From the IMG/VR virus record IMGVR_UViG_2700989521_000016: 29,192 nucleotides of DNA; one strand, written 5' to 3'. The position numbers and the translations under genes are program-made. This document shows, one piece after another, positions 5,160-17,943 of the stretch. This DNA comes from a virus. Lineage: Duplodnaviria > Heunggongvirae > Uroviricota > Caudoviricetes. Under the pieces are notes generated by a model, which was given only the letters and a program-made list of their open reading frames with translations, had not been told where the DNA came from and made no database searches. The stretch's first letter is position 1; each line of letters opens with the position of its first letter.

Positions 5160-5744
5160 TTATTGTTTGTTTTTTTCGTTCTGGTTGATGACAAATTCAA
5201 TGTAACTTTCGATCTTTGCTTTCTCGGTTTCAGGTAACAATGCGTAGCGCGAGCGGTCATAGTTGATAGTTGCAGGGTCGTGCGGGTGAATCAGTAGTTC
5301 ATATCCGTGACGCCCGAATGCAGATGCAACATTCTCCAGAGTGGAAATGGAAACGCTGACCTCATTGTTTAACAGGCGGCTGATTGTCACCTGGGCGACG
5401 CCGGATGCGCGGTGAAGTTTTCCCTGAGTTGAAAGGTCGCGGCTTTCACTCATCCAGCGTTCCAGGTTGTGAGCCGCCAGCTGACCAATGTCGCTTGGTC
5501 CAACAGGCTGAAAACCCTCCTGAGAAAGCGAGCGATCGATATCAAGCCAGTTACGTGGTTTATTGGCGGCAGCTTCAATTTTTCGCGCAACCTGGTCGCC
5601 GATAACCTTCTTGCCAAGAGCCCAGCGGTTTACCAGATTTGCCTGAGTTCCAAGTTTTTCTGCCATCCGCGTCTGAACACCATTGAATTCACGGTCGATC
5701 AAGTCGTTGAGATTTTGCCTGCGGACGTCCTGGATACTTTTCAT
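5160..5744 (-). CDS. Prophage repressor candidate with two tandem XRE-type helix-turn-helix domains and no recognisable S24 peptidase domain
   Basis: 194 aa; two HTH-like segments (MAEKLGTQANLVNRWALGKK...; ASGVAQVTISRLLNNEVSVSISTLENVASAFG); divergent from Cro-like gene with operator palindromes between them. Confidence 0.75.
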   Translation of the reverse strand: MKSIQDVRRQNLNDLIDREFNGVQTRMAEKLGTQANLVNRWALGKKVIGDQVARKIEAAANKPRNWLDIDRSLSQEGFQPVGPSDIGQLAAHNLERWMSESRDLSTQGKLHRASGVAQVTISRLLNNEVSVSISTLENVASAFGRHGYELLIHPHDPATINYDRSRYALLPETEKAKIESYIEFVINQNEKNKQ

Positions 5745-5799
5745 TTTCTGGAAAATCGCCTCATATATGAATCAGTAGATGATTCAATTTAAAGCAATA

Positions 5800-5862
5800 T
5801 TACCCAACAGGTAAATGCACCCCATAGGTAACTATCCTTGATTTTTGTTACCTTATGGGTGA
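5800..5862. promoter_or_regulatory. Tripartite operator region between repressor and Cro-like genes (sites 5800-5814 perfect, 5817-5831 imperfect, 5848-5862 9/10)
   Basis: TTACCCAACAGGTAA, GCACCCCATAGGTAA, TTACCTTATGGGTGA read directly; TTGATT -35-like hexamer at 5837-5842 upstream of the Cro-like gene. Confidence 0.65.
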
Positions 5863-5898
5863 ATATTTATTATCTGAAATAAATATCAGGCAATAGCT

Positions 5899-6129
5899 AT
5901 GAGCGATAACGGACATTTCGATTTCAAAAAGCACTGGCTTGCACTTACTCCGGATGAGCGTGAAGCCTTCGCACAGGAAGCCGGAACGACGAGTCACTAT
6001 ATCCAGACTCACTTAACAGGTAAGCGCAAAATGACAGGTAAAGTATTGATGAATGGGCTTTTTAAAGCCTGTAAAACAAGACAATGGCTGCGCTCAAAAG
6101 CAGAACTGGCATACTTCTTCTACTCATGA
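5899..6129 (+). CDS. Cro-like / YdaS-like small DNA-binding regulator
   Basis: 76 aa; position divergent from repressor; pattern resembles Cro/CI-type HTH (EAFAQEAGTTSHYIQTHLTGKRKM); weak SD. Confidence 0.65.
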   Translation: MSDNGHFDFKKHWLALTPDEREAFAQEAGTTSHYIQTHLTGKRKMTGKVLMNGLFKACKTRQWLRSKAELAYFFYS

Positions 6130-6150
6130 TATCCAGCCACAAACCTCTGT

Positions 6151-6173
6151 AGACCGCCATCCGGCGGTCTTTT
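6151..6173 (+). terminator. Rho-independent terminator after the Cro-like gene (tR1-like position)
   Basis: Stem GACCGCC/GGCGGTC (6151-6168, loop ATC) followed by TTTT (6169-6172). Confidence 0.65.
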
Positions 6174-6279
6174 CATATCTATTCGCACCTTAAAGGTAAT
6201 AAAAAACCAAATCTGGTTGATCTTTTTTTTGTGTCAGCACAAAATAACCGTAATCCCAATACTAATAACAGGGCTTACC

Positions 6280-6480
6280 ATGGAAATCATTACACGTATT
6301 GATGCCGCAAAGCGCGGACTTAAACGCTACTACACCGGAAAACCATGTAAGCACGGACATGACAGTGAACGCTGGGTTTACAACGGACACTGTGTTGAGT
6401 GCACCATGGAATCAAACCGTCGCATCAGGGCAGAGATTAAGCAGATCATGATTAATTCCTCCCCACAACATTCAAGCTGA
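6280..6480 (+). CDS. Small zinc-ribbon-like protein (66 aa) in the cII-equivalent position
   Basis: ATG at 6280; C-x-H-G-H ... C-x2-C motif (KPCKHGHDSERWVYNGHCVEC); the ORF track's longer version begins with TTG at 6217 and was not preferred; weak RBS. Confidence 0.45.
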   Translation: MEIITRIDAAKRGLKRYYTGKPCKHGHDSERWVYNGHCVECTMESNRRIRAEIKQIMINSSPQHSS

Positions 6481-6495
6481 TAGCGGAGATTAATC

Positions 6496-7311
6496 ATGAG
6501 CAGACATGCAACAGATTGGGCCTGGGAGACAGATCCAGGTAGCTCATCATTAAAGCTCATACTGCTCTCGATGGCTGACAGAGCCGATGAATATAACCTC
6601 TGCTACCCCAGCATAGAACGCCTCGTTAAAGACACTTGCCTGAATAAAAAAACCGTGCAGGCCGGGCTTATATCGCTCATGAAAATGGGGCTTATTTCAG
6701 ATACCGGAGAGAGAAAGGGAGCGACGAAAAGAGTGCGGGTTTTCTCTCTTAATATAACCAAAAACGGGAACATTAAAGGCAACCGGGAAGGGGGGAATGA
6801 ACCCGAAAACGGTAATGTTCCCGAAAACGGTAATATAACCAAAAACGGGATGTTGAATGATCCCAAAAACGGGATGTTGAATGATCCCAAAAACGGGATC
6901 CAGAACCAGTCATATAACCAGTCATTTAACCAAGAGAGGGAGAGCAGGACAAAAAACGGGAATTCTGTGCCTCATGACCCCGGCGCAAACAACGCCGTGA
7001 TGAATAACTTTGTTCCTCCTGGTGGGCCAGGGCAATTAGGCAAATTTGTCATGCATGAACAATGGCAGCCATCAGATGACTTTCTTCGGAAAAGCTCATT
7101 GCAGGGGATCTACCTGGACAGTCTGCCAACGGCACAGGAACTTGCAGAGTTCAGAATTTACTGGATGGCTGAGGGTAAGGCATACCATCAGGCACAGTGG
7201 GAGCAGAAGCTGGCAAGGCGGCTGCAGATTAGCAGACAGAAGCAATCAACATTACCTGATAACAACGTTCCGCACTGGAACAGCCCTGAAGCATGGGAGG
7301 ATTTCTTGTGA
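6496..7311 (+). CDS. Replication initiator protein (lambda O-like organisation: N-terminal HTH domain, iteron-encoded linker, C-terminal DnaT-like domain)
   Basis: 271 aa; sits directly upstream of and overlaps the P-like gene; internal iteron array encodes an NG-rich linker; GGAG SD upstream. Confidence 0.75.
   Translation: MSRHATDWAWETDPGSSSLKLILLSMADRADEYNLCYPSIERLVKDTCLNKKTVQAGLISLMKMGLISDTGERKGATKRVRVFSLNITKNGNIKGNREGGNEPENGNVPENGNITKNGMLNDPKNGMLNDPKNGIQNQSYNQSFNQERESRTKNGNSVPHDPGANNAVMNNFVPPGGPGQLGKFVMHEQWQPSDDFLRKSSLQGIYLDSLPTAQELAEFRIYWMAEGKAYHQAQWEQKLARRLQISRQKQSTLPDNNVPHWNSPEAWEDFL
6757..6900. repeat. Iteron array (candidate origin of replication) embedded in the replication initiator gene
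   Basis: Direct repeats read from sequence: CCCGAAAACGGTAAT at 6802-6816 and 6820-6834 (18-bp period); CCAAAAACGGGATGTTGAATGAT at 6839-6862 and 6863-6886 plus a partial third copy; related CCAAAAACGGGAA at 6757-6769. Confidence 0.7.
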
Positions 7312-8093
7312 ACAACGTTTTTACCGCAATACAAAACCGTGACGGAGAGGCCCTTTCTCGCATGTCAGGTTATGAGCATCAGTACACCAACAATGACAAC
7401 GTAGTGAACATGTCAGCAGAGAGGCTTGTTGATGCCCTTTTCAAACAGTTGAAACAACTGTTTCCGGCGGCAGTGGTAACCAACCTGAAGACGCCAGAGC
7501 AGGAAGTTGCTGCAAAACAGCAGTGGATTGCTGCGTTTGCCGAAGGGGGGATCCGAACCCGTAAACAGGTTTCTGCTGGTATGCGCCACGCCCGCGCCAG
7601 TGATTCTCCGTTCTGGCCGTCGCCAGGGCAATTCATCAAGTGGTGCAAAGACAGCAAGATGGTTCTTGGCGTCACCATTGACGATGTGATGACGGAGTTT
7701 CACCGGTACAGCAAGGAAAAAAGTTTATATCCTGGTGGTCCCGAAAGATTCCCGTGGCGGCATCCGGTTATGTACTGGGTCGTATGTGATACCCGCCGTG
7801 CAATGTATCAGCGCCAGCTTAGCGAGATTGAGGTTGAGAAACACGCGCGCAGGCTGCTCGATGATTGGGCGAAAAAGGTGGCTTCCGGACAGCAGATACC
7901 CGATCCGGTGATCAGCATACAGGCAAAGCCAGAACCCATGAGTACGCCTCCGGAAACAGGGAGAGACGTTTACCATCCACCAGGGCGAAGTTTCGGGTGC
8001 ATGCCTAACGCCGCCACCCTGGGGGGAATAACACCGGCGCAGTGGCTGATGGAGGAATACAGGCGGGGAAAGGCGGCAGGATTTATCAAGTAA
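7308..8093 (+). CDS. Replication protein P-like (DnaB helicase loader family)
   Basis: Motif SAGMRHARASDSPFWPSPGQFIKWCKD parallels lambda P (NAGMRVARRQNRPFLPSPGQFVAWCRE) from memory; GTG at 7308 overlaps the O-like stop (GTGA) with GGGAGG SD 7 nt upstream; alternative ATG start at 7293. Confidence 0.85.
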   Translation: MNNVFTAIQNRDGEALSRMSGYEHQYTNNDNVVNMSAERLVDALFKQLKQLFPAAVVTNLKTPEQEVAAKQQWIAAFAEGGIRTRKQVSAGMRHARASDSPFWPSPGQFIKWCKDSKMVLGVTIDDVMTEFHRYSKEKSLYPGGPERFPWRHPVMYWVVCDTRRAMYQRQLSEIEVEKHARRLLDDWAKKVASGQQIPDPVISIQAKPEPMSTPPETGRDVYHPPGRSFGCMPNAATLGGITPAQWLMEEYRRGKAAGFIK

Positions 8094-8555: not shown

Positions 8556-8616
8556 ATCGACGATCTTTTTAGTTATCAATGTAATCAATAAGTTATGTGG
8601 ATAAGCGAGGGTAAAG

Positions 8617-12460: not shown

Positions 12461-13903
12461 TTGATCGAGGATATTGCAGGGTTCACTCACGATCCGCTTG
12501 GCTATGCCCTCTATGCGTTCCCGTGGGGGGAAGAGGGGACTGAATTAGCACATGCCACCGGTCCACGTCAGTGGCAGGCTGATGCGTTCCGAGAGATACG
12601 TGATCACCTGCAGAATCCAGAGACGCGCTATCAGCCGCTTATGCTGGCACGTGCTTCGGGTCACGGTATTGGTAAATCCGCATTCATCTCAATGCTGATC
12701 AACTGGGGCATGTCCACTTGCGAGGATTGTAAGGTCGTGGTGACCGCCAACACCGACAACCAGCTACGAACGAAGACTTGGCCGGAAATTATCAAGTGGT
12801 CGAACCTTGCTATCACGAAAGACTGGTTTACCTGTACCGCTACCGCGATGTACAGCAATGACCCTGGGCACGACAAGCGGTGGCGAGCTGACGCAATCCC
12901 CTGGTCTGAGCACAACACTGAGGCATTCGCCGGACTACACAACGAGCGCAAACGCATCATCGTGGTATTCGATGAAGCGTCGAACATTGCGGATCTGGTG
13001 TGGGAAGTTGCCGAGGGTGCGCTAACGGACGAAGACACTGAGATTATCTGGGTGGCGTTCGGAAACCCGACGCGTAACACCGGGCGTTTCCGTGAATGTT
13101 TCCGCAAGTACAAACACCGCTGGAAGTGTGCGCAGATTGACAGCCGGACGGTGGAAGGCACTAACAAACAGCAGTTGCAGAAATGGGTTGATGACTACGG
13201 GGAAGACAGCGACTTCGTTAAAATCCGTGTGCGCGGCATATTCCCGGATGCATCTGAATTGCAGTTTATCCCTACTGGCCTTACTGACGAGGCAATGAAA
13301 CGGGTGGTAACCGCTGCGCAGGTTGCACATGCTCCGGTGATAATCGGCGTTGACCCGGCATACTCCGGCGTTGATGACGCTGTGATATACCTGCGGCAGG
13401 GGCTGCACAGTAAGGTGCTGTGGACTGGCAACAAGACCACTGACGATCTGATTATGGCGAAGCGTATCGCTGACTTTGAAGACCAGTACCAGGCTGACGC
13501 AGTGTTCATCGACTTCGGTTACGGAACTGGTCTGAAGTCAATCGGTGACGGCTGGGGTCGTACATGGCAACTTGTTCCGTTCGGTGGCGCGTCTACTGAC
13601 CCGCAGATGCTCAACAAGCGTGGGGAGATGTTCATCTCATGCAAGACATGGCTGAGGCTGGGTGGCATGCTTGATGACCAGGAAACAGCGGACGACCTGT
13701 CGGCGGCTGAGTACAAAGTTCGAGTGGACGGTAAAATCGTTATCGAACCGAAGGAAGATATCAAGGAGCGGCTTGGGCGTTCGCCGGGTAAAGGCGATGC
13801 GCTACTGCTGACGTTTGCGTTCCCTGTGTCGAAGCGTCTGCGAATTCCCGGGCAGCAGAACCAGCAAGGCAAGGCCATCACAGATTACGATCCCTATGCT
13901 TAA
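12461..13903 (+). CDS. terL: Terminase large subunit (ATPase plus nuclease domains)
   Basis: 480 aa; Walker A-like ASGHGIGKS; VVFDEASN Walker B-like; TTG start at 12461 as in ORF track (in-frame stop at 12422-12424 limits upstream extension). Confidence 0.85.
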   Translation: MIEDIAGFTHDPLGYALYAFPWGEEGTELAHATGPRQWQADAFREIRDHLQNPETRYQPLMLARASGHGIGKSAFISMLINWGMSTCEDCKVVVTANTDNQLRTKTWPEIIKWSNLAITKDWFTCTATAMYSNDPGHDKRWRADAIPWSEHNTEAFAGLHNERKRIIVVFDEASNIADLVWEVAEGALTDEDTEIIWVAFGNPTRNTGRFRECFRKYKHRWKCAQIDSRTVEGTNKQQLQKWVDDYGEDSDFVKIRVRGIFPDASELQFIPTGLTDEAMKRVVTAAQVAHAPVIIGVDPAYSGVDDAVIYLRQGLHSKVLWTGNKTTDDLIMAKRIADFEDQYQADAVFIDFGYGTGLKSIGDGWGRTWQLVPFGGASTDPQMLNKRGEMFISCKTWLRLGGMLDDQETADDLSAAEYKVRVDGKIVIEPKEDIKERLGRSPGKGDALLLTFAFPVSKRLRIPGQQNQQGKAITDYDPYA

Positions 13904-14547: not shown

Positions 14548-14624
14548 TGGCGTGGCATGCAGGATTCGAACCTGCGACCAACCGCTTAGAAGGCGGTTGC
14601 TCTGTCCGACTGAGCTAATGCCAC
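14548..14624 (-). tRNA. tRNA-Arg (anticodon UCU), phage-borne
   Basis: Manually folded 77-nt cloverleaf on minus strand: acceptor GTGGCAT/ATGCCAC, D-arm GCTC/GAGC, anticodon stem ACCGC/GCGGT with loop CTTCTAA (anticodon TCT), T-arm GCAGG-TTCGAAT-CCTGC identical to E. coli argU as recalled, discriminator G and encoded CCA. Confidence 0.8.
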
Positions 14625-15272: not shown

Positions 15273-16952
15273 ATGGCGGAAACAACTAAAGAGCGATTGA
15301 ACAAACAGTTCGCACAACTTGAAAGCGAGCGTCAGTCGTTCGAGCCGCACTGGCGCGAGTTGAGTGATTACATCAACCCGCGTGGTTCCCGCTTTCTGAC
15401 TTCTGAGGTCAACCGTAACGATCGACGCAATACACGCATTATTGATTCGACCGGGACTATGGCGGCGCGCACTCTCGCCAGCGGCATGATGTCAGGCATC
15501 ACAAGCCCCGCGCGTCCGTGGTTTCGCCTGGCTACGCCAGATCCTGAAATGATGGATTATGGCCCTGTTAAGTTGTGGCTTGAGGCGGTGCAGAACCGCA
15601 TGAACGATATGTTTAATGAGTCGAATCTCTATCAGTCTCTGCCGCAGTTATACGGAAGCCTCGGCACATACAGCACTGGTGCAATGGCAGTGCTGGAGGA
15701 TGACGAGGACATCATTCGCACAATGCCATTCCCGATAGGCAGTTACTACCTGGCTAACTCACCTCGTGGCAGTGTGGACACCTGTTTTCGCAAGTTCTCT
15801 ATGACTGTTCGTCAGCTTGTTCAGGAGTTCGGGCTAAATAACGTCAGCGAATCCGTAAAAAGCATGTGGGAAAGCGGCACCTACGAGAAGTGGATTGAAG
15901 TGATGCATTCGGTTTACCCGAACATTGACCGCGATACATCGAAGCTGGATAGCAAGAACAAGCCATTCAAATCGGTTTATTACGAGGTTGGTGGCGATAA
16001 CGACAAGTTGTTGCGTGAGTCCGGATTCGATGAGTTTCCAATTATGGCTCCGCGCTGGGAAGTTAACGGCGAAGATGTTTATGGATCATCATGCCCGGGT
16101 ATGCTGGCGCTTGGACCTGTTAAGGCATTGCAGCTTCTCCAGAAGCGCAAGTCGCAGTTGATTGATAAAGCCACCAATCCGCCGATGGTTGCTCCGACTT
16201 CCCTCAAGAATCAGCGCGCCTCCCTTCTTCCTGGCGACATCACGTATATCGATCAGATTACTGGTCAGGATGGTTTCAGGCCTGCTTATCTGGTTAACCC
16301 CAGTACAGCAGATCTGGTAGCAGACATTCAGGACACTCGCCAAATCATTAACAGCGCCTACTTTGTCGATCTGTTCATGATGTTGCAGAACATCAATACC
16401 CGCTCGATGCCTGTTGAAGCGGTGATCGAAATGAAAGAAGAAAAACTTCTGATGTTGGGGCCGGTTCTGGAGCGTCTGAACGACGAATGTCTTAATCCTC
16501 TCATTGACCGCGCTTTCTCGATGATGGTGCGTAAAAACATGCTGCCGCCACCGCCTGACGCGATGGAAGGTATGCCCCTGAAGGTCGAATACATTTCCGT
16601 CATGGCTCAGGCGCAGAAGTCTATCGGCCTGTCCAGTCTGGCGTCTACGGTCAACTTCATTGGTCAACTTGCGCAAGCGAAACCAGAAGCTCTCGACAAA
16701 CTCAACGTTGATCAGGCGATCGATGCATTCGCTGATATGTCCGGAGTGTCTCCAACCGTCATTGTTCCGCAGGAACAGGTTGAGCAGGCTCGCCAGCAAC
16801 GGGCACAGCAACAACAGCAGCAACAAATGATGGCGATGGGGATGGCGGCGGCACAGGGTGCCAAGACGCTAAGCGAAGCTAAAACTTCGGATCCGAGTGT
16901 TTTGTCAGCTATGGCGAATGCAGTTAGTGGTCAGGGTGGGCAATCACAATGA
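15273..16952 (+). CDS. Portal (head-to-tail connector) protein, podovirus type
   Basis: 559 aa; position after terminase; size and C-terminal Gln/Ala/Met-rich tail (QQRAQQQQQQQMMAMGMAAAQG) recall podovirus connector proteins; family assignment from memory. Confidence 0.8.
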   Translation: MAETTKERLNKQFAQLESERQSFEPHWRELSDYINPRGSRFLTSEVNRNDRRNTRIIDSTGTMAARTLASGMMSGITSPARPWFRLATPDPEMMDYGPVKLWLEAVQNRMNDMFNESNLYQSLPQLYGSLGTYSTGAMAVLEDDEDIIRTMPFPIGSYYLANSPRGSVDTCFRKFSMTVRQLVQEFGLNNVSESVKSMWESGTYEKWIEVMHSVYPNIDRDTSKLDSKNKPFKSVYYEVGGDNDKLLRESGFDEFPIMAPRWEVNGEDVYGSSCPGMLALGPVKALQLLQKRKSQLIDKATNPPMVAPTSLKNQRASLLPGDITYIDQITGQDGFRPAYLVNPSTADLVADIQDTRQIINSAYFVDLFMMLQNINTRSMPVEAVIEMKEEKLLMLGPVLERLNDECLNPLIDRAFSMMVRKNMLPPPPDAMEGMPLKVEYISVMAQAQKSIGLSSLASTVNFIGQLAQAKPEALDKLNVDQAIDAFADMSGVSPTVIVPQEQVEQARQQRAQQQQQQQMMAMGMAAAQGAKTLSEAKTSDPSVLSAMANAVSGQGGQSQ

Positions 16953-17247: not shown

Positions 17248-17943
17248 ATGAATTTATTTGAGCGTTTGCTGTATCGCCGTCTTTGCAATGAGCAACCAGT
17301 CGATGGTGGAGCAGCTCCGGCTGCGTCAGAACCGTCAGCGCCTGCAGGTGATAACCCTGCTCCAGTTGGTGATCCATCACAACAGGAAGGTGATAAGACA
17401 CAACCTGTTGCTGATGGCGATAAACCTGCTGATGACAAAAAGCCTGAAAGCGATAAGCAGGGTGAAAAAAAGGACGGCGATAAACCGGAGGGTGCGCCTG
17501 AGAAGTACGAGTTTCAGGCTGCTGAAGGCGTAGAGCTGGATACAGAAGCGTTGAAGGAATTCGAGCCGGTGGCGCGAGAACTTAACCTGACCAACGAGCA
17601 AGCGCAAAAGCTGGTTGATGCTTATCCGAAGATTCTGGCAGGTGTTCAGCAGCGCCAGGCAGAAGCCTGGCAGAAAACAACCGAGCAGTGGGCTGCGGAT
17701 GTAAAAGCTGACAAAGAAATCGGTGGCGACAAGTTGATTTCTAACCTTAGCGCCGCACAGCGTGCGCTTGACCAGTTCGGGACACCTGAACTCAAAGAGT
17801 ATCTGAACGCCACCGGGCTGGGTAATCACCCTGATCTGGTCAAAACGTTCGTGAAAATCGGAAAGGCGATGTCTGAAGATGGCATGGTCACCGGTGGTAA
17901 TGAAGGCCAGCGTAGTGCGGCCGAAGTGCTCTATGGCAAATAA
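17248..17943 (+). CDS. Scaffolding protein candidate
   Basis: 232 aa; highly acidic, Pro/Asp/Lys-rich low-complexity N-terminal region and helical C-terminus; position between portal and major capsid; ATG at 17248 with ACAGGAG SD (track gives GTG at 17242). Confidence 0.65.
   Translation: MNLFERLLYRRLCNEQPVDGGAAPAASEPSAPAGDNPAPVGDPSQQEGDKTQPVADGDKPADDKKPESDKQGEKKDGDKPEGAPEKYEFQAAEGVELDTEALKEFEPVARELNLTNEQAQKLVDAYPKILAGVQQRQAEAWQKTTEQWAADVKADKEIGGDKLISNLSAAQRALDQFGTPELKEYLNATGLGNHPDLVKTFVKIGKAMSEDGMVTGGNEGQRSAAEVLYGK

Follow-up and report, generated by a model that had tools for sequence, protein, structure and literature searches.

A probable replication origin within the initiator gene of a phiV10-like Escherichia coli prophage

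In phage lambda, the replication origin lies in the middle of gene O and is built from iterons, each of them a 19-bp imperfect inverted repeat, of which lambda carries four and the Stx phages six (PMC7466680). The lambda iterons are found at nucleotides (nt) 349–433 of gene O with spacings of 20, 24 and 23 nt, an AT-rich tract follows them, and gene P overlaps the O stop codon. The iteron plasmids (RepA/RepE/pi/TrfA class) form the other group of related systems, with direct repeats of ~17–24 bp in one prevailing orientation and a winged-helix initiator. Here we analyzed a stretch of 29,192 nt (hereafter the window; IMG/VR record IMGVR_UViG_2700989521_000016), which we identified as an integrated phiV10-like (Uetakevirus) E. 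coli prophage, and in particular its gene at 6496–7311, which contains several short tandem repeats. The original prediction, made from the letters of the DNA alone, had taken these repeats for the likely origin and for initiator-binding sites, and our comparison of 84 relatives supports this as their predicted function. The repeats are very probably the initiator-binding iterons of a phage replication origin set inside the initiator gene, and the origin of this phiV10-like temperate phage probably spans about 6754–6960, laid out like ori-lambda. This would place the replication origin of the phiV10-type phages, i.e., Uetakevirus, members of which serve as reporter and typing phages for E. coli O157, within about 200 bp.

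The correspondence with ori-lambda extends over most of the layout. As in lambda, the putative origin is located mid-way in the initiator gene, directly after the part that encodes the N-terminal DNA-binding domain. As in lambda and the Stx phages, it has 4–6 iterons of 18–19 bp with imperfect inverted symmetry and a central A-tract (compare the lambda site ATCCCTCAAAACGAGGGA with GATCCCAAAAACGGGATC of the window), and as in lambda the next gene is a P homologue that overlaps the initiator stop codon. The earlier claim of a lambda-like arrangement, with an origin inside the initiator gene, is thereby supported. There are also differences: the TCCC and GGGA half-sites are separated by 6 nt in this locus, as against 9 nt in lambda, and where lambda has a 40-bp AT-rich tract the window has three 12-nt units (GAAYC units, see below) and a weakly AT-rich purine tract. 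In addition, the N-terminal domain of the initiator belongs to Pfam HTH_36 and not to Phage_rep_O, and its C-terminal domain is DnaT-like, unlike that of lambda O. Homology to lambda O at the sequence level was considered and rejected, as there was no Phage_rep_O match at E < 0.01, BLASTP gave E 0.07, and a profile of the family aligned to lambda O residues 1–116 with an hhalign probability of 2.2%; the 'O-like' families of PHROG matched the initiator only at E 5e-19 or weaker. Of the earlier description as an O-like initiator gene, the initiator part therefore stands (full-length match to phrog_1032, 'replication initiation protein', E 4e-108), whilst the part that would make it a sequence homologue of lambda O does not. 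By analogy, the locus would work like ori-lambda, with an initiator that falls outside the lambda O family by homology.

Iteron plasmids resemble the locus in the direct repeats, the prevailing orientation and the winged-helix initiator described above, and their origins also have short repeats beside the iterons: 12/13-mers are found here in the place where plasmids carry a 13-mer unwinding element. Rep proteins of the HTH_36 type have been described for plasmids of Paracoccus (PMC3832669). Unlike in plasmid replicons, where iterons are normally intergenic, the iterons here lie inside the initiator coding sequence, and plasmid maintenance genes are absent.

A probable iteron array inside the initiator gene

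Tandem Repeats Finder called three arrays in this region, with periods of 18 bp (6806–6848; 2.4 copies, 84% matches), 24 bp (6839–6899; 2.5 copies, 100% matches) and 12 bp (6904–6932), and no other sizeable array in the window except a weak one at 17409. The 18-bp and 24-bp arrays share a 12-nt core, CCVAAAACGGKA. When the whole window was scanned for this pattern, allowing at most one mismatch, eight matches were found versus 0.45 expected, a number that none of 100 shuffles reached. Seven of the eight fall within 205 nt (starting at 6758, 6803, 6821, 6839, 6863, 6887 and 6950), which gives core-to-core spacings of 45, 18, 18, 24, 24 and 63 nt. Six of these copies are strong and one is weak, together spanning 6758–6961 (Table 1). 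They represent one iteron type, which consists of a 12-nt core with an A-tract between CC and GG, and of partly inverted arms. The 18-bp and 24-bp periods reported earlier were thus recovered, whilst the two repeat families to which they had been assigned are a single core at two spacings. The reported extent (6757–6900) was right in its location and too short at its end, as the 12-mers reach 6938 and a weak core occupies 6950–6961. The array is situated between the regions that encode the winged helix (residues 1–86) and the DnaT domain (residues 184–252), and translation agrees with the earlier statement that the repeats within 6496–7311 encode an Asn/Gly-rich linker (PENGN, PKNGMLND), the peptide being ...NEPENGNVPENGNITKNGMLNDPKNGMLNDPKNGIQNQSYNQSFNQ....

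Table 1 Predicted features of the replication region, in window coordinates.
Feature	Position	Strand	Sequence	Basis
Replication initiator gene	6496–7311	+		271 residues; open reading frame and translation; Pfam; phrog_1032
N-terminal winged-helix coding region (~residues 1–86), presumed iteron reader	6496–6753	+		AlphaFold2; family identity
Iteron 1	6754–6771	+	ATAACCAAAAACGGGAAC	Exact core; weight matrix 18.2 bits
Iteron 2	6799–6816	+	GAACCCGAAAACGGTAAT	Core match; weight matrix 19.1 bits
Iteron 3	6817–6834	+	GTTCCCGAAAACGGTAAT	Core match; weight matrix 15.5 bits
Iteron 4	6835–6852	+	ATAACCAAAAACGGGATG	Core match; weight matrix 18.4 bits
Iteron 5	6859–6876	+	GATCCCAAAAACGGGATG	Core match; weight matrix 20.7 bits; 5 of 6 arm positions symmetric
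Iteron 6	6883–6900	+	GATCCCAAAAACGGGATC	Core match; weight matrix 18.7 bits; perfect 6-bp inverted arms around AAAAAC
Three tandem 12-nt units	6903–6938	+	GAACCAGTCATA, TAACCAGTCATT, TAACCAAGAGAG	12-bp array of Tandem Repeats Finder; relatives
Purine/A-rich tract	6931–6957	+	CAAGAGAGGGAGAGCAGGACAAAAAAC	Sequence; sits where relatives have an A-rich tract
Possible iteron 7, weak	6946–6963	+	AGGACAAAAAACGGGAAT	Core with one mismatch; weight matrix only 10.2 bits
DnaT-like C-terminal domain coding region (residues 184–252)	7045–7251	+		Pfam DnaT, E 1.1e-15
Lambda-P-type helicase-loader gene	7308–8093	+		786-nt coding sequence; Pfam, PHROG, phiV10 annotation

Across the family (see the next section), the consensus site cAGTcCCAAAAACGGgACt has 6-bp inverted arms, AGTCCC and GGGACT, around the A-tract AAAAAC, and almost no variation is seen at the innermost CC and GG (1.8–2.0 bits). 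Iterons 5 and 6 of the window are good dyads, in which GATCCC-AAAAAC is followed by GGGATG and GGGATC, respectively, and in many relatives, too, the last iteron is the most palindromic (e.g., GTCCCAACGTTGGGAC). The arms covary between loci, with arm pair −3/12 being complementary in a fraction of 0.81 versus 0.54 ± 0.04 after shuffling, and pair −2/11 in 76% versus 63%. The initiator may bind as monomers on direct repeats, as in iteron plasmids, or as dimers on every site.

Arm covariation is also expected of hairpins, and the dyads could in principle act as such, either as mRNA stem-loops that tune translation of the initiator or P gene or as terminators on the antisense strand. The RNA fold of 6745–6965 reaches −57.1 kcal/mol compared to −45.4 ± 4.1 kcal/mol for shuffled sequences (z = −2.83), and two terminator-like hairpins were called on the minus strand (6889–6870 and 6865–6846). 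The additional stability is, however, expected because dyads are present, and terminator-like calls numbered four versus 3.1 expected in shuffles. Moreover, conservation is highest in the unpaired A-tract and at the innermost CC/GG, whilst the outer arms are weak, and iterons 1–4 are complementary at only 2–4 of the 6 arm positions. A hairpin function would also leave unexplained the fixed link of the motif to a winged-helix domain and the origin-like module downstream, and we regard it as highly unlikely. The two minus-strand hairpins consist of adjacent iteron arms and the A-tract, followed by TTTTT, and are probably a side effect of tandem dyads. No Rfam family matched the origin region.

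The seventh copy is less certain, as the exact core occurs at its offset in only 2 of 80 near-identical viral contigs, and its region reads GGGA in the window versus GGGG in phiV10 and phage BP9. A further observation concerns iterons 5 and 6, the arms of which include three GATC (Dam) sites in 42 bp (6859–6900), compared to ~1 per 250 bp overall. Relatives mostly have AGTCCC arms, and the clustering of GATC is therefore lineage-specific. SeqA and Dam effects on the origins of Stx phages are discussed in PMC7466680.

The motif in relatives of the initiator

We collected four phage homologues with the same N-terminal domain (Edwardsiella GF-2, Vibrio Her, E. coli PPompW and Acinetobacter BP10) and 80 genome loci from Gamma-, Beta- and Alphaproteobacteria and Desulfovibrio, in which the N-terminal domain is 40–87% identical to that of the window protein. 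These 84 diverse loci were scanned with a 22-nt position weight matrix, which had been trained iteratively on the linker regions, with one threshold for linkers and flanks. A loose regular expression that had been tried for the frame counts missed divergent motifs and was replaced by this matrix. In total, 386 sites were found in 80 of the 84 loci. Per kb, the linker contained 9.75 sites and the flanks 0.148, a ~65-fold enrichment that is partly circular, since the matrix was trained on linkers. Nearly all relatives have 3–11 copies of the motif immediately past the winged-helix region, at nt 260–480 of the gene.

The repeats might instead be nothing more than a slippage-prone, low-complexity Asn/Gly/Pro linker, encoded by DNA that has no function of its own. 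Within the window this explanation looks reasonable, as the peptide repeats PENGN and PKNGMLND are neat and all spacings are multiples of 3; the argument from the reading frame consequently rests on the relatives. Among these, motif copies occur in at least two reading frames in 61 of 80 loci and in all three frames in 18, and only 50% of the spacings are divisible by 3, the commonest being 24 nt and the second commonest 17 nt. Spacings are likewise irregular, and not multiples of 3, in lambda. With respect to orientation, 334 of the 386 sites run along the gene and 52 are inverted. Successive copies of one identical DNA sequence in Vibrio salinus, CCAAAAACGGA, are read as PKNG, PKTE and SQKR, and in GF-2 and Acinetobacter Asn is replaced with Ile or Phe where the DNA palindrome improves (ATCCCAAAATTGGGAT, CCCAAATTTGG). 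Copies in two or three frames, some of them inverted, imply selection on the DNA and not on an Asn/Gly peptide: the DNA is conserved and the peptide is not. The near-invariant CC...GG and the covarying arms are, moreover, properties of a binding site, and the motif is tied to one family of DNA-binding domains. We thus consider a mere linker very improbable. The repeat is a DNA-level element under selection from which the linker peptide follows, which would make the odd Asn/Gly-rich linker of these initiators a by-product of origin DNA.

The linker explanation also draws on copy number, which shifts by whole units in the manner of a microsatellite. The best 80 viral-contig loci were all near-identical and were used only to assess this variation; core copy number in such alleles ranges from 3 to 9, and phage BP9, for example, is without one 24-bp unit, that of iteron 4. 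Allele lengths in E. coli are 792–870 bp, and proteins of 279–311 residues are common. This spread in copy number mirrors the difference between lambda and the Stx phages. Polymorphism was counted over 40 distinct alleles of identical architecture, as alleles of equal length with a differing architecture shift the register, and 2 of 72 positions were variable in the cores versus 9 of 78 between cores, which is suggestive only.

The relatives further indicate with which part of the protein the iterons are associated. The proteins of phages SPN1S and Tyrion share only the C-terminal DnaT-like part and have different N-termini, and no weight-matrix match was found in either. The converse case is the 'O' protein of GF-2 (1501–2343 of locus L005), whose N-terminal domain is 57% identical to that of the window protein and is accompanied by iterons of the family type and by 12-mers, while from residue 137 onward the protein shares 62% identity with the last 144 residues of lambda O (E 2e-67). 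This lambda-O-like C-terminus has no Pfam match. Classical lambdoid hybrids of the same kind as GF-2 defined origin specificity in the lambdoid phages. On the basis of these sequences, GF-2 is a natural hybrid in which the N-terminal domain and the iterons form one exchangeable unit, and as in the lambdoid phages this unit is swapped against the C-terminal domain. Inheritance of the iterons accordingly follows the N-terminal DNA-binding domain rather than the C-terminal one. The GF-2 DNA that comes right after the 12-mers (gagaattctgacgaatcctcagac) resembles the lambda DNA to the right of the AT-rich tract (gagaattctggcgaatcctctgac).

Short repeats and the A-rich tract beyond the last iteron

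The three 12-nt units of the window start at G6903AACC..., T6915AACC... and T6927AACC..., and phiV10 has one unit more. In the relatives, the units follow the consensus GAAYCTnnCAn, and the first of them begins 4–6 nt past the last iteron. At least two GAAYC units are present in 74 of the 80 relatives and at least three in 54, whereas two units are found in 0.1% of random 60-nt windows from the same loci. The units are spaced by 12 nt in 64 cases and by 13 nt in 52, and with either spacing in use the element is independent of the reading frame. In the 30 nt beyond the last unit, A+T averages 70% compared to 56% locus-wide, often as AAAAATAAAAAA. The corresponding tract of the window is only weakly AT-rich (GC 0.45–0.47) and has an AT skew of +0.4 to +0.5. 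Iterons, then short repeats and then an A-rich tract constitute the layout of an origin with an unwinding element, and we infer that the GAAYC triplet is a conserved second module of the origin, with a proposed role in unwinding or single-strand binding.

From the layout and by analogy with known origins, initiation could proceed as follows. The winged helix at the N-terminus of the initiator would bind the iterons and build a bent nucleoprotein complex, the torsional stress of which would open the GAAYC triplet and the purine/A-rich tract (6903–6957), and the DnaT-like C-terminal domain together with the P-like protein would then bring the host DnaB onto the opened DNA.

Several features weigh against an origin at this position. 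In addition to the in-frame spacings of the window and the partial circularity of the enrichment, iterons 1–4 keep the core with only 2–4 of 6 arm positions symmetric, and no strongly AT-rich segment is present beside the window iterons, unlike in lambda; GC is 0.38–0.47 over 6830–6980 and 0.43–0.47 over 6860–6980, where A strongly exceeds T. The lack of such a segment would suit a different role, in which the initiator binds the repeats mainly for regulation and the strands are opened elsewhere. Candidates for this role include autoregulation or a roadblock within the initiator gene itself, titration or handcuffing as a control of copy number, and exclusion of related phages. Titration and inhibition by iterons are known for plasmids and lambda fragments, rep-lambda being inhibited by ori-containing plasmids (PMC3349717), and a copy number as variable as 3–9 would also be in line with a regulatory function. 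However, a conserved triplet of 12/13-mers at a fixed offset of 4–6 nt, mostly followed by an A-rich tract, is what one expects of an origin and not of an operator. Furthermore, the 29-kb window shows no second cluster of repeats and no alternative candidate origin, and with respect to the lambda-type right half of the GF-2 gene, the iterons occupy exactly the place that those of lambda have. We therefore judge a mainly regulatory role to be unlikely, and favor the interpretation of the repeats as origin iterons.

The arrangement as such is ordinary and lambda-like, and our understanding of phage replication is unchanged because the design is that of lambda; what is particular is an initiator family for which we found no description of an origin. 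The one feature of this origin that might be new is the GAAYC triplet. It could be a site for single-strand recognition or unwinding, read by the N-terminal domain of the initiator or by a host factor, and would then resemble DnaA-trios or the 13-mers of plasmids that are bound by Rep. More tentatively, and with somewhat less than even confidence, the triplet may be an undescribed sequence-specific origin element that travels with the winged helix whatever the C-terminal domain, and that defines a widespread class of proteobacterial prophage origins. In a literature search that covered few of the subscription journals, we found nothing on this motif or on the phiV10-type origin; an earlier mention is possible. 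In practice, CCAAAAACGG iterons followed by a GAAYC triplet provide a putative origin signature for a large family of proteobacterial prophages.

Initiator domains and the replication module

The initiator has a three-part layout, with an N-terminal winged helix, an origin-encoded linker and a DnaT-like C-terminal domain; in Pfam, HTH_36 matches residues 18–67 (E 1.8e-10) and DnaT matches the C-terminal part (Table 1). Residues 1–95 were modeled with AlphaFold2 from a 47-sequence alignment, which came from a second homologue search and holds mostly truncated N-terminal fragments. The model is a winged helix of topology H-H-H-H-E-E with a mean predicted local distance difference test score of 90.3. 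Its closest folds in the PDB are dimeric winged-helix DNA binders of the MarR/Fur/BlaI type (E ~3e-3); the fold search with this domain returned no initiator or plasmid Rep structure, and a sequence profile of the domain gave nothing significant against the PDB.

At the other end, residues 180–265 match the solved DnaT C-domains 9zbt, 6aep and 4ou6 (E 7e-21 to 4e-20). E. coli DnaT (primosomal protein I) and the initiator thus have in common the C-terminal domain that in DnaT binds single-stranded DNA, whereas DnaT has no counterpart of the winged helix or of the iteron-encoding linker. We considered and rejected the possibility that the gene is a DnaT orthologue, given that only residues 180–265 of the initiator align (to DnaT residues 85–170), the N-terminus is HTH_36, and the gene belongs to a phage initiator/loader module. 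As judged from its sequence and context, the gene is assigned as the replication initiator, and it would encode an origin-binding protein with a borrowed DnaT-like domain, as opposed to a protein of the restart primosome. This corrects the 'DnaT / primosomal protein' annotation that is common for the gene.

In relatives, the C-terminal domain that accompanies this N-terminal domain is DnaT, DnaA_N or a region with no Pfam match, and the annotation of the downstream gene is either P protein or replicative helicase. DnaA_N (Pfam E 1.2e-8) was found in an Erythrobacter sp. relative (1501–2592 of locus L164), where it takes the place of the DnaT-like domain at the C-terminus and suggests that the host helicase is reached in another way. 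A second relative of note is NZ_CP148379.1, a circular E. coli record of 8,461 bp in which a homologous initiator and P (5594–7088) are the only replication genes. Four strong weight-matrix sites lie inside its initiator gene, and the other content includes genes like those of the Qin and Rac prophages (rem, hokD, a repressor, a cro-like gene and ydaT). The record may represent a natural lambda-dv-like replicon, which would hint at a self-sufficient module; against this, it could be an assembly or excision product.

The gene that follows the initiator in the window is a helicase loader (7293/7308–8093), matching Pfam Phage_lambda_P (E 5e-56) and phrog_109, 'P-like helicase loader' (E 1.9e-91). 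The GTG at 7308, which is its likely start, overlaps the TGA stop of the initiator gene (GTGA), in agreement with the phiV10 annotation, in which the loader has 786 nt and a 4-nt overlap with the initiator gene. A second possible start is the in-frame ATG upstream at 7293. The segment 6217–8093 shares 98% identity with phages PAS61, phiv142-3 and phiV10, and close copies of the gene at 6496–7311 are present in 424 of 5,426 complete E. coli genomes.

Gene order along the window runs from the integrase through recombination genes, an immunity region and replication genes to head genes, with a repressor/cro-like region located upstream of the initiator and the lambda-P replication module. The first gene of the window encodes a tyrosine integrase (Arm-DNA-bind_3 and Phage_integrase; 1–1251, + strand). 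An integrase gene in first position is the order of an integrated prophage, and the window therefore probably represents a prophage and not the genome of a virion. Directly upstream of the initiator, a small open reading frame (6217–6480, + strand) belongs to phrog_1081, a family of unknown function, and is conserved as p42/p40 in phiV10 / epsilon15; Cys/His motifs in its product (CKHGH...CVEC) suggest a zinc finger.

With respect to host factors, no DnaA box (TTATCCACA, at most one mismatch) was found within 1.5 kb of the iterons, the nearest one being at 8596, ~1.6 kb away; in this the locus differs from iteron-type plasmid origins. This is also the only perfect DnaA box of the window (8596–8604, − strand) and lies in an AT-rich gap that separates a DUF1064/resolvase-like gene from the next gene; the number of DnaA boxes in the window is not above chance. 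Farther downstream, a phage-borne tRNA-Arg gene (anticodon TCT; 14548–14624, − strand; Rfam 73 bits, ARAGORN) sits between the open reading frame at 12461–13903 and the portal gene at 15273–16952. The former has no Pfam match and is possibly a terminase gene, as judged by position only.

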